Made by a program: the position numbers and the translations under genes. Of a stretch of 64,000 nt of DNA, positions 40,764 to 42,192 are shown one piece after another; the first letter of the stretch is position 1, and every line of letters begins with the position of its first letter. A model generated the notes under the pieces. It saw only the letters and a program-made list of their open reading frames with translations. It had not been told where the DNA came from and did not search any database. The DNA comes from Desulfarculales bacterium (lineage in GTDB: Bacteria; Desulfobacterota; Desulfarculia; Desulfarculales; Desulfarculaceae), in the NCBI GenBank assembly GCA_031554335.1, contig JAVBVK010000003.1:86144-150143 (forward strand), in the 5' to 3' direction.

Positions 40764-41420
40764 ATGAAAAAAGAATCAATAAATCCGCGACTTGATGTCT
40801 TCAAGTCCAAGCTGGTAAAAGGTGCCAGCTTCAGTCCACATTACGAACTTCCCATACTGGCCAACTCGGATTACAAACCCGAGCGGGCGCTTCCTTTTGA
40901 AAAAGCCTCCACGGCCAGCAATCATGCCCAGGGGGTGCATTTTTACACCCATGATTACCACTTTGAATGCGTGTGGAACAACCCTGACCGTTACCTGCCG
41001 TTGTTTCAGCGTTTTCAGGGTATTATTAGCCCGGATTTCAGCCTGTACCGGGAAATGCCCCTGGCCATGCAGATATGGAACACCTACCGTGGCCGGGCGC
41101 TGGCCTTTTGGCTGCAGAGCCAGGGCATTAAGGTGGTGCCCAATGTGCGCTGGGGCGATGAGCGCAGTTATGAGTTCGTTTTTGAAGGATTAACCCCAGG
41201 CGGCACAGTGGCTGTGAGCACCAACGGCTGTATTCAAAGCAAGCTGGAGCGCCGCTATTTCGCTCAAGGCCTGGCCGAAATGGTAAAAATCCTGAGGCCC
41301 CAGACTATCATTAACTATAGCCAGACCCCGGATGATATATTTAACCAATACCGGGAAAAGGGTATAGAGGTTATTAGCATCCCTCATTATGCCCAAATCG
41401 TCAGAAAGGCGGTGCCCTAA
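40764..41420 (+). CDS. DUF4417 domain-containing protein
   Basis: 'VHFYTHDYHFECVWNNPDRY...IISPDFSLY...WNTYRGRALAFWLQSQGIKVVPNVRWGDE' matches my recollection of DUF4417. An alternative ATG lies at 40752. Confidence 0.65.
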   Translation: MKKESINPRLDVFKSKLVKGASFSPHYELPILANSDYKPERALPFEKASTASNHAQGVHFYTHDYHFECVWNNPDRYLPLFQRFQGIISPDFSLYREMPLAMQIWNTYRGRALAFWLQSQGIKVVPNVRWGDERSYEFVFEGLTPGGTVAVSTNGCIQSKLERRYFAQGLAEMVKILRPQTIINYSQTPDDIFNQYREKGIEVISIPHYAQIVRKAVP

Positions 41421-41776
41421 TGGGCGGCGGGGGCGGAAGAGGATGGTTTGGGGGGACCAAGGGCAGTGGCGGTGGTAAAACATATGCTAACTCCAAAGCA
41501 GAGGCAAGACAGGCTATAAAAAATCTGCCTGCGCCTGTGCAAGGCGTAGCAAAGCGTATGATCAAACGATCGTCTAATCGATACCAGAGTTTTGGTGTGA
41601 AACAACTGCCCAATGGTAATACTTTGTTTAGAACAGAAAATCCAGGCAAGGTGCCAGGTTCCAAAGCTGTTTACTATAAAGAAGTTAACCCGCAAGGAAC
41701 AACAGTGCGTGTGTACAAAGAAACATATGACCCCAAGGGTAATCTTGTCCACACGAGGGAAAAGGAGGTAGACTAG
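41420..41776 (+). CDS. hypothetical small basic protein with Gly-rich N-terminus
   Basis: 118-aa ORF whose ATG overlaps the DUF4417 stop (TAATG). N-terminus 'MGGGGGRGWFGGTKGSGGGK'; YD-repeat-like 'YKETYDPKGNLVH'. Confidence 0.5.
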   Translation: MGGGGGRGWFGGTKGSGGGKTYANSKAEARQAIKNLPAPVQGVAKRMIKRSSNRYQSFGVKQLPNGNTLFRTENPGKVPGSKAVYYKEVNPQGTTVRVYKETYDPKGNLVHTREKEVD

Positions 41777-42192
41777 TGGCAACTTTGAGTAAAATAATTG
41801 AAGCGCTTAACGAATACAAAGCTCTTAAAATAACCAAAAAGCAGTTGCACGAGAAAGTCGGTAAAAAATTTTGGGACGTACAACTTGATGAAGATGACAT
41901 TGTTATTGTAGACAATAATGACTTAATCTATGTGCTTCAAGCAGCTAAAGACGGGCGTATATCCATACCTGAGCTAATTGATTGGGTAAATGTTATTTGG
42001 TTCAGCGAGCTTTATGATTACTCCGATGAGCATGAAGACGTCATTGCCGCAGTCATGAACGAATTGGAAGAGTTGGAAGATACCGGTTATGTATTGCCAG
42101 TTGAAGATATCGACCTCTACATTAGTGCATTGGAAAAAAATGATGATGAAATGGTTCTGAAAAGAAGGCACGATTCACCTGCCTTGCCTTAA
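41776..42192 (+). CDS. hypothetical acidic protein
   Basis: GTG start overlaps the upstream stop (TAGTG) and has AAGGAGG 7 nt upstream. Strongly acidic ('ELYDYSDEHEDVIAAVMNELEELEDTG'). Confidence 0.5.
   Translation: MATLSKIIEALNEYKALKITKKQLHEKVGKKFWDVQLDEDDIVIVDNNDLIYVLQAAKDGRISIPELIDWVNVIWFSELYDYSDEHEDVIAAVMNELEELEDTGYVLPVEDIDLYISALEKNDDEMVLKRRHDSPALP

Follow-up and report, generated by a model that had tools for sequence, protein, structure and literature searches.

A probable polymorphic toxin–immunity module with DUF4417 as its constant component in a Desulfarculales bacterium

Introduction

The DNA considered here, a stretch of 64,000 nucleotides from a Desulfarculales bacterium (assembly GCA_031554335.1, contig JAVBVK010000003.1, positions 86,144 to 150,143) that is referred to below as the window, contains three chained genes that encode a DUF4417 protein, a small basic protein and a small acidic protein. 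The question raised by this locus is what function such a trio might serve. A preliminary description of the sequence noted that the pairing of a small basic with an acidic protein recalls toxin/immunity or toxin/antitoxin (TA) modules, and that the trio could not be assigned to a known system; the latter statement holds, since Pfam, PADLOC and NCBIfam provide no such assignment. On balance, the results presented below favour reading the cassette as a polymorphic toxin–immunity module whose class has not been described before and in which DUF4417 is the constant component. The assignment of the two small proteins as toxin and immunity protein, which derives from sequence comparisons, is put forward with high confidence.

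Organization of the cassette

The features of the locus are collected in Table 1. Direct reading of the sequence bore out the chain given in the preliminary description: TAATG at 41418-41422 joins the DUF4417 and toxin genes, and TAGTG at 41774-41778 joins the toxin and immunity genes, with an overlap of one nucleotide (nt) in each case. The strong terminator said to close the cassette was also found, as a hairpin with a T-run, and the middle and last proteins are indeed basic, with a Gly-rich N-terminus, and acidic, respectively. A Shine–Dalgarno sequence, AAGGAGG, is situated at 41762-41768, 7 nt 5′ of the GTG start codon of the immunity gene. An alternative, longer open reading frame (ORF) for the DUF4417 protein starts at 40752; the start at 40764 is the one that agrees with a database protein (P0194). 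The match of the product to PF14386 scores 204 bits, against a gathering cutoff of 28.9, and extends over profile positions 5-177 of 183, which places the protein in the family.

Neither small protein had any match in Pfam, NCBIfam or PADLOC. A known defence system was ruled out for the three-gene core, as PADLOC returned no match for any of its genes. Near-identical DNA was sought in plasmids and in E. coli and none was found, nor was a second cassette or an orphan module detected within the window. Conservation of the small ORFs at the protein level, the absence of which would have counted as a refutation according to the preliminary description, was assessed against the closest relative (L100; survey loci are denoted by L numbers), whose toxin is 74% identical. 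The ratios of non-synonymous to synonymous differences (pN/pS) came to 0.26 in the toxin gene and 0.34 in that of the acidic protein, and because of these values both ORFs are considered to be protein-coding and under purifying selection. The functional unit in the window consists of five genes, including two regulator genes situated upstream. From the survey described below, the three-gene core appears to be the universal unit, to which the regulator pair is a frequent but optional addition.

Table 1. Features of the cassette and of its surroundings in the window
Feature	Coordinates	Strand	Description
DUF4417 protein gene	40764..41420	+	218 amino acids (aa); constant partner of the cassette; Pfam PF14386, 1.5e-60
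Predicted toxin gene	41420..41776	+	118 aa, isoelectric point (pI) 10.2; leader plus alpha2-beta5 toxin domain (residues ~25-115)
Leader-coding part of toxin gene	41420..41467	+	Gly-rich N-terminus MGGGGGRGWFGGTKGS
Predicted immunity gene	41776..42192	+	138 aa, GTG start, pI 4.3; cognate immunity protein
Bidirectional intrinsic terminator	42214..42249	both	15-bp stem, 6-nt loop, T-run; common to the convergent relaxase gene
XRE-family helix–turn–helix (HTH) regulator, CapH/ImmR-like	39661..40026	+	121 aa; Pfam HTH_31, 3e-13; PADLOC capH, 6e-10
ImmA/IrrE/CapP-like Zn-metallopeptidase	40013..40609	+	198 aa, HEIAH; Peptidase_M78 weak (0.0098); PADLOC capP, 1e-5
Perfect 12-nt inverted repeat	39587..39615		AATAAATCAACA N5 TGTTGATTTATT; over the -35 of a promoter-like site at 39606-39634
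Hairpin	40712..40757	+	10-bp stem, z = -2.5; directly 5′ of the DUF4417 start, in the 150-nt spacer after the peptidase gene
Type III restriction–modification	res 31254-34334; mod 34996-36870	-	1026 aa and 624 aa; a 224-aa protein without assignment lies between
DrmD-like SNF2 helicase	36941-39496	-	851 aa; PADLOC DISARM DrmD, 5e-103
MobA/VirD2 relaxase	42314-43585	-	Convergent with the cassette; TraI-like middle domain
NikA-like relaxosome protein	43582-43911	-	Beside the relaxase
Rhamnose-biosynthesis genes rmlD/rmlB	46662-48538		Beyond the relaxase and NikA-like genes

Recurrence of the arrangement in other genomes

It was of interest to determine how widely this arrangement is found. DUF4417 loci were surveyed with one genome per species, which yielded 459 loci, and the best 80 of the 459 were analysed; arrangements were counted in the 70 of these 80 that were full-length, independently retrieved and accompanied by at least 300 nt of downstream sequence. 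The loci derive from Clostridia, Desulfovibrionales, Spirochaetota, Treponema, Turicibacter and others. An ORF lies within 15 nt of the DUF4417 stop codon in 67 of the 70 loci, and in 52 of these 67 the stop and start codons overlap by exactly 1 nt. The adjacent ORFs begin with MG[GATSR][GSC] in 65 of the 67 instances and encode basic proteins in 64, while 54 of the 56 genes that come after the toxin ORF encode acidic proteins. The recurrence of DUF4417 with a basic and then an acidic protein is far beyond what chance would give.

These counts bear on the simplest alternative, that three unrelated small genes are adjacent and overlapping by chance. Stop/start overlaps are common in bacterial operons, and neither small protein has a Pfam or NCBIfam match, as might be expected in that case; however, dozens of independent loci from different phyla repeat the order, the overlap and the pattern of charge, and chance adjacency is regarded as extremely improbable. 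The overlap between the DUF4417 and toxin genes represents translational coupling that is conserved across phyla. A programmed frameshift joining DUF4417 to the toxin was rejected, as the relative frames of the two genes vary (54 in -1, 12 in +1 and 1 in frame), and coupling is the simpler reading.

The toxins share a short N-terminal leader, with the consensus M-G-[GA]-G-x-x-G-x-F-G-x-T-[KR]-G. Among 51 unique leaders, the F is present in all 51, and the T and the final G in 50 each. Downstream of the leader the proteins are unrelated, falling into 23 C-terminal clusters, and alignment of the window family with the Ntox50 group by hhalign matched residues 1-18 only. The 118-aa protein consists, then, of a Gly-rich leader of 14-16 aa and an exchangeable toxin domain, and one leader is common to at least 23 unrelated toxin types, all situated behind DUF4417. 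A double-glycine bacteriocin leader served by a C39 ABC exporter was considered and dismissed, the consensus being different and transporter genes being absent nearby.

Among the sister cassettes, the toxin domains recognised were Ntox50 (E = 5.7e-18) and ParB_N; weak matches, below the Pfam cutoffs, were to CHAP-like, HExxH/SprT-like and PBECR1-like domains. Some toxin types have a PT-TG-like pre-toxin segment before the toxin domain. The immunity proteins form 18 clusters that correspond nearly one-to-one with the toxin clusters, and include members of Pfam Imm7 (2e-40), DUF2247 and DUF4926. The CHAP-like variants of Desulfovibrionales and Desulfuromonadaceae (L013, L022) precede proteins with N-terminal signal peptides, the arrangement that would be expected for cell-wall toxins with periplasmic immunity. 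The partner of the ParB-like toxins (L058, L061, L070, L073, L082, L086 and L088) is a 224-aa calcineurin-like phosphoesterase (Metallophos_2, 5e-5); its presence in place of a small acidic protein hints at an enzymatic mechanism of immunity.

Loci whose toxins are 48-51% identical to that of the window display the same gene order (XRE HTH regulator, metallopeptidase, DUF4417, toxin, acidic protein), with a 1-nt overlap between the DUF4417 and toxin genes and a gap of 1-2 nt between the toxin and immunity genes, in unrelated surroundings. In comparison with L003, identities are 45% for the XRE regulator, 46% for the peptidase, 43% for DUF4417, 48% for the toxin and 27% for the acidic protein.

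The basic protein as a free-standing toxin domain

The 118-aa protein belongs to a tight family of 113-122 aa (40 close clusters), with a Gly-rich N-terminus and a highly conserved C-terminal two-thirds in which 28 positions are invariant among 19 aligned sequences. When 1.84 billion representatives were searched with a profile of the family, 608 relatives were obtained. In longer relatives the domain is located at the extreme C-terminus, for example at residues 3147-3250 of a 3250-aa protein and 2113-2193 of one of 2193 aa. The Pfam architectures that carry it combine an S8 peptidase with DUF6531 and RHS repeats, SpvB with TcdB_mid and RHS, PT-HINT, or RHS cores, and other relatives have a PT-TG-like pre-toxin segment. 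The C-terminal tip of such scaffolds is given as the defining place of polymorphic-toxin warheads by Zhang et al. (2012, PMC3482391). Because its domain occupies the tip of Rhs-type polymorphic toxins, the 118-aa protein is read as a toxin, and sequence comparison supports the view that it is a free-standing copy of a polymorphic-toxin C-terminal domain. No Pfam trafficking domain is present in it; only the leader precedes the toxin domain.

An AlphaFold2 (AF2) model of the 118-aa protein (pLDDT 80) has disordered residues 1-18, helices at 26-35 and 38-50 and then a five-stranded antiparallel sheet. No homologue was found in the PDB by sequence or profile. The comparison of a predicted structure with known folds, which had been suggested at the outset, gave no significant neighbour in the PDB or BFVD with Foldseek. 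The domain is accordingly a new toxin family with no counterpart in Pfam or the PDB. The toxin is read as probably a metal-independent nuclease on account of its alpha+beta topology, its basic charge, its conserved K/Y/H/K residues (conserved positions include K87, K100, H111, K113 and K115) and its acidic partner; this is a guess, because the model has no significant structural neighbour. A barnase-like RNase, considered from a motif resemblance, was rejected since E88 is not conserved and neither sequence nor fold has a match in the PDB, nor the model one in BFVD. Only a weak BECR-like guess is left, for a model with N-terminal helices, five strands and conserved K/H residues that gave no significant Foldseek or hidden Markov model match.

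The peptide 'YDPKGNLVH' had been likened in the preliminary description to a YD repeat, a likeness that did not survive: no RHS_repeat (PF05593) match was obtained at E<=1 for the window protein or 27 relatives. The peptide corresponds to a beta-hairpin that is conserved in the toxin domain. A 192-aa protein (P0035) encoded on a 1.1-kb contig joins an N-terminal fragment of an N6_N4 DNA methyltransferase (PF01555) to a window-type toxin domain, and is probably a chimeric or frameshifted gene call.

The acidic protein as cognate immunity protein

Homologues of the 138-aa protein come after every window-type toxin. The window-type toxin is also found behind DUF4417 in L015 and L043, always with a window-type acidic protein. 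As an orphan third gene, the same immunity family is situated after other pairs in L072, L075 and L076/77. Because it co-varies one-to-one with toxin type and occurs elsewhere as an orphan immunity gene, the acidic protein is read as the predicted cognate immunity protein, an assignment supported by these comparisons. No HTH, ribbon–helix–helix (RHH) or AbrB match was found in it with Pfam or NCBIfam. Of the two possibilities raised in the preliminary description, a polymorphic toxin/immunity system is preferred to a classical type II TA pair.

Exchange of toxin–immunity modules

Comparison of related loci reveals sharp limits of homology. The pairs L070/L074 and L086/L090 show 88-90% identity through DUF4417, leader and PT-TG, and no relationship beyond; for L070 and L074 the identity is 88%, begins upstream of DUF4417 and extends some 72 codons into the toxin gene, where the PT-TG segment ends. 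In L038 and L040 the limit of homology falls, with the end of the leader, roughly 15 codons into the toxin gene. A displaced orphan copy of the L086 immunity gene, 86% identical, is situated downstream of the pair that belongs to L090, and short copies of the junction between the DUF4417 3′ end and the leader recur downstream in L040 and L059. L100 (positions 1-2400) is a tandem array of two different toxin/immunity modules, each preceded by a 256-nt repeat (97.7% identical) composed of the DUF4417 3′ end and leader codons, with a 184-nt fragment of a window-type immunity gene between the two. In L024, from a Turicibacter metagenome-assembled genome (MAG), a single ORF (4890-5915) holds DUF4417 in frame with a toxin that belongs to the L026/L027/L034 family, the two being joined by a Gly-rich linker, and an immunity gene of that family follows.

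It is apparent from these breakpoints that new toxin/immunity pairs are swapped in by recombination, for which the DUF4417 3′ end and the leader codons provide the homologous handle. Such features are what defines polymorphic toxin systems, and they link DUF4417 with the leader as the part that stays constant.

The orphan genes also bear on the main rival to the polymorphic toxin reading, in which the locus is an intracellular tripartite TA or abortive infection (Abi) system. There, a CapH/CapP-like switch would sense phage-induced DNA damage and turn the operon on, DUF4417 would sense or activate via the leader, the toxin would kill or arrest the cell, and the acidic protein would be a labile antitoxin. 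Such a system would be at home in a defence island, beside Type III restriction–modification and DrmD-like helicase genes; its regulators would resemble CapH/CapP of CBASS, as they do here; and the cassettes are small, self-contained, scattered over unrelated chromosomal contexts and found with no secretion genes nearby. The toxin-first gene order and the lack of a DNA-binding domain in the acidic protein argue against it, however, as does the repertoire of toxins, which matches that of exported polymorphic toxins. Displaced modules in arrays and orphan immunity genes suit protection from the toxins of neighbours rather than an internal switch, and a site of action outside the cytoplasm is implied by the CHAP-like variants, whose immunity proteins have signal peptides. 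Because of the orphan immunity genes and the secreted-type variants, the intracellular explanation is disfavoured and is judged unlikely. Export of the toxins is argued for by these signal-peptide proteins and by the orphan immunity genes, which would protect against neighbours' toxins.

DUF4417 as the partner of the leader

There are 570 close homologues of the DUF4417 protein of the window. Its AF2 model (pLDDT 85, pTM 0.83) is that of a beta/alpha repeat protein. A search of PDB sequences with the DUF4417 profile found nothing and, as the structural matches given below are weak, the idea that DUF4417 is a known enzyme was set aside. Approximately 30 positions are invariant among 33 homologues, many of them polar or aromatic and located at strand ends; they include H59, D91, S93, Q103, W105, N106, R111, N127, R129, W130, D132 and R134. 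These residues could line an active site, or else a groove that is strongly conserved because it receives the invariant leader. That DUF4417 is a functional partner that recognises the leader is considered more probable than not.

In the collection searched, at least 500 records of phages also carry DUF4417 (385 for Mycobacterium, 57 for Streptococcus and 35 for Gordonia), often fused to a ParB-type N-terminal domain. ParB-CTPase-DUF4417 fusions have been described as enriched in prophages, with no function assigned (2025 preprint, bioRxiv 10.1101/2025.10.10.680097). In all seven phage genomes examined, the gene next to DUF4417 encodes a protein with a related Gly-rich N-terminus. These pairs are gp1/gp2 of Mycobacterium phage EricB (gp2 'MGGRGGGGGPG…', annotated as a peptidase, with an HELGH motif) and of Gordonia phage Nebulosus (gp2 'MGGRGSGGGGP…', annotated as a VIP2-like ADP-ribosyltransferase toxin), 123/124 of Chaser (gp124 'VGGRGGGGGGP…'), 119/120 of MiniMac (gp120 'MGRGRSP…'), 42/41 of Streptococcus phage MissD (gp41 'MGGRGASSG…'), and the proteins that come after DUF4417 in Javan381 ('MGGRGAKSSGG…') and in the uncultured phage MT835524 ('MGGRGSTSS…'). 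The form of the leader follows the DUF4417 clade, being MGGRG in phages and FGxT[KR]G in bacteria, and this agreement, seen in sequence, is consistent with a physical interaction.

The streptococcal and uncultured phages have the pair directly upstream of the genes for the small and large terminase; in cluster A mycobacteriophages and in Gordonia Soupsvirus, the pair makes up genes 1-2 at the left end of the genome. A link of the phage pair to DNA packaging or injection is suggestive, though not uniform across phages. The effector and DUF4417 genes of EricB and Nebulosus overlap by approximately 90-160 nt. In actinobacteriophage loci the DUF4417 gene, often annotated as 'nuclease', comes before proteins with very long Gly-rich N-terminal regions (L095 419-1926, L098 430-1985, L096 2438-3493), whose effector domains are a metallopeptidase, a VIP2-like ADP-ribosyltransferase or a small ADP-ribosyltransferase (ART)-like domain. 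In three Desulfovibrio loci (L016, L017 and L031), DUF4417 and a leader-bearing protein of 112-116 aa, with no acidic immunity gene after it, are found downstream of a protein of ~700 aa; these surroundings look, by appearance alone, like a phage structural region.

The phage loci raise a further explanation, that the cassette is a phage-derived effector module, a moron or domesticated remnant. DUF4417 would be an enzyme or chaperone that matures leader-bearing effectors for host takeover within the infected cell, and the bacterial copies with immunity genes would be addictive remnants with no delivery function. The abundance of DUF4417 in phages, its frequent ParB fusion and prophage enrichment, the adjacent MGGRG-type effectors, and the integrase or phage-like genes that flank some Desulfovibrio DUF4417 loci agree with this explanation. 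However, the phage copies lack FGxT[KR]G, and no cognate immunity gene was identified beside those examined; the active turnover of bacterial cassettes with matched immunity implies ongoing selection for antagonism, not decay; and the window copy is intact, with regulators and terminator. A phage-derived remnant is held to be quite unlikely.

Proposed mechanism

For the polymorphic toxin–immunity module favoured here, the following course of events is proposed. The XRE repressor and the ImmA/CapP-like peptidase would hold the operon off until a stress or DNA-damage signal leads the peptidase to cleave the repressor. DUF4417 would then bind or process the leader and act as an adaptor or trafficking partner that carries the toxin to the delivery route; it would fill the role of the N-terminal constant region of classical polymorphic toxins, the two being fused in L024. 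The immunity protein, produced from its own strong ribosome-binding site, would neutralise the toxin in the producer and its kin. For delivery, a route linked to phage or DNA transfer would be the best lead because the phage DUF4417 genes precede leader-bearing effectors, and it is offered as a tentative suggestion.

A broader and equally tentative possibility is that DUF4417 and the leader form a phylum-spanning trafficking device, in which DUF4417 captures any leader-bearing protein and loads it, into phage capsids or onto transferred DNA, for co-delivery with DNA; the frequent fusion of phage DUF4417 to a ParB clamp would suit such an arrangement. If true, one device would serve phage-injected effectors (ADP-ribosyltransferases and peptidases) and bacterial polymorphic toxins alike, a delivery mode beyond the eight known would be added, and a function would be provided for a DUF present in hundreds of sequenced phages.

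Several observations weigh against parts of this proposal. Secretion-system genes were found in none of the neighbourhoods examined, in the window or at the other loci, and virion genes are likewise lacking around the cassette of the window and around most bacterial loci. In cluster L mycobacteriophages the pair is situated among tRNA genes, not packaging genes. Foldseek returned only weak TIM-barrel-like matches for DUF4417, to PdxJ and transaldolase (TM ~0.44, E ~3e-3), and its many invariant polar residues are no less in keeping with an enzyme than with a passive adaptor. The L024 fusion, which comes from one MAG contig, may reflect an indel in the assembly rather than a natural fusion. The regulator pair is present in only 24 of the 63 DUF4417 loci with enough upstream sequence, and the nuclease part of the proposal has to contend with the toxin model that lacks a structural neighbour.

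Regulators and control elements

Repressor–metallopeptidase pairs of the CapH/CapP, ImmR/ImmA and DdrO/IrrE families operate as switches, in which a damage signal activates the peptidase and the peptidase cleaves the repressor. An adjacent XRE HTH regulator and HExxH M78-type peptidase are found upstream of the operon in the window, and the orthologue of the metallopeptidase in L008 carries PF06114. The perfect inverted repeat over the promoter-like site ahead of the XRE gene is likely to be the operator of the XRE repressor. Its half-site GATTTATTAT is repeated at 39537-39546, over the -10 of a divergent promoter-like site that faces the helicase gene; because of this repeat, the repressor might control both directions. 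The hairpin before the DUF4417 gene is a possible attenuator or terminator that parts regulator from effector transcription, and stable hairpins are present in the equivalent spacer of L003, L008 and L043. In several loci from Clostridia (L040 3638-4789, L070 3652-4773 and L074 3650-4771), a P-loop ATPase of 373-383 aa (GKNGSGKSS) replaces the XRE/peptidase pair directly upstream of DUF4417.

Genomic surroundings

The G+C content of the window is 51%. The DNA is not enterobacterial, its rmlB showing an identity of only 66%. With restriction–modification and helicase genes on one side and a relaxase region on the other, the surroundings of the cassette look like a mobilizable defence island, and the relaxase region itself like an integrative mobilizable element adjoining rmlD/rmlB. 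Further away, a 611-aa protein is encoded at 26714-28549 (+ strand), the C-terminus of which matches PADLOC mad3/mad8 (1e-24); it is possibly part of a methylation-associated defence system. PADLOC gave no match for the + strand genes at 22298-26713.

Significance and comparison with known systems

Polymorphic toxin–immunity systems are already well known; the role of DUF4417 and the leader is apparently new. Literature linking DUF4417 or PF14386 to toxins was not found in a search that extended to literature outside subscription. The main text of Zhang et al. (2012, PMC3482391) gives eight trafficking modes, and DUF4417 is not one of them. A survey of PT-TG toxins from 2026 explained domain-less cases by cryptic WXG domains and type VII secretion (T7SS), not DUF4417, and a 2022 survey of phage ADP-ribosyltransferases discussed MuF fusions and terminase proximity, not the DUF4417/leader pair.

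The cassette of the window is one ordinary, intact member of the DUF4417 class, with an uncharacterised toxin domain. That domain is new and comes with its predicted cognate inhibitor. DUF4417, which has no assigned function, gains a testable context as the obligate partner of leader-tagged toxins and effectors, and the first genes of many actinobacteriophages are flagged as a related effector pair. The leader motif could serve to mine new toxin/immunity families and possibly to target cargo. The added class of polymorphic toxins is common in gut Clostridia, Desulfovibrio and spirochaetes, and its export route could reveal a new secretion or virion-loading mechanism.

Type II TA systems likewise consist of a small basic toxin and a small acidic neutraliser in one operon on a mobile element. 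The DUF4417 cassettes differ in that the gene of the toxin precedes that of the neutraliser, that the neutraliser lacks a DNA-binding domain and that there is a third gene, which is constant; orphan immunity genes and secreted-type toxin/immunity variants are also observed. The CapH/CapP, ImmR/ImmA and DdrO/IrrE switches share with the window the regulator pair upstream and a palindromic putative operator over the promoter; the window pair differs in that it precedes a toxin/immunity cassette, not a CBASS, integrative and conjugative element (ICE) or DNA-repair regulon, and is optional.

In the adaptor–effector–immunity triads of type VI secretion systems (T6SS), an adaptor (DUF4123/Tap-1, DUF1795/Eag or DUF2169) recognises a conserved N-terminal part of the effector. 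The triads would resemble the present cassettes in having a conserved accessory gene directly upstream of a variable effector gene, followed by an immunity gene. They differ in that no T6SS genes or PAAR/VgrG/MIX markers are known from DUF4417 cassettes and DUF4417 has no detectable similarity to T6SS adaptors; moreover, the hosts of DUF4417 include monoderms and phages, which have no T6SS.

The phage-packaged toxins of the MuF type (Jamet et al. 2017, PMC5576092; Zhang et al. 2012) overlap in repertoire with the DUF4417 cassettes (Ntox50, ART, peptidases), and both have genes by the terminase in some phages and short, 'unstalked' toxins. No MuF (SPP1 gp7) match was found in the cassette, whose neighbours in the window are restriction–modification, helicase and relaxase genes; the association with packaging genes is not uniform, and most bacterial cassettes have no phage structural genes nearby.

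Polymorphic toxin systems (Rhs, contact-dependent inhibition (CDI), LXG/WXG and MuF), as described by Zhang et al. (2012, PMC3482391), provide the closest parallel. There are differences: the constant element within a DUF4417-cassette toxin is only the leader of ~14 aa, DUF4417, which is the large constant protein, forms a polypeptide of its own that is coupled in translation, and the cassette has no recognised secretion-system domain or gene. In both, however, a constant N-terminal element is found on many unrelated toxin domains, a cognate immunity gene that co-varies with toxin type is situated directly downstream, and sharp breakpoints and orphan toxin/immunity modules occur in sister cassettes. 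Toxin and immunity families are also common to the two (Ntox50, ParB-like and Imm7), and the toxin domain of the window is itself carried by Rhs proteins.

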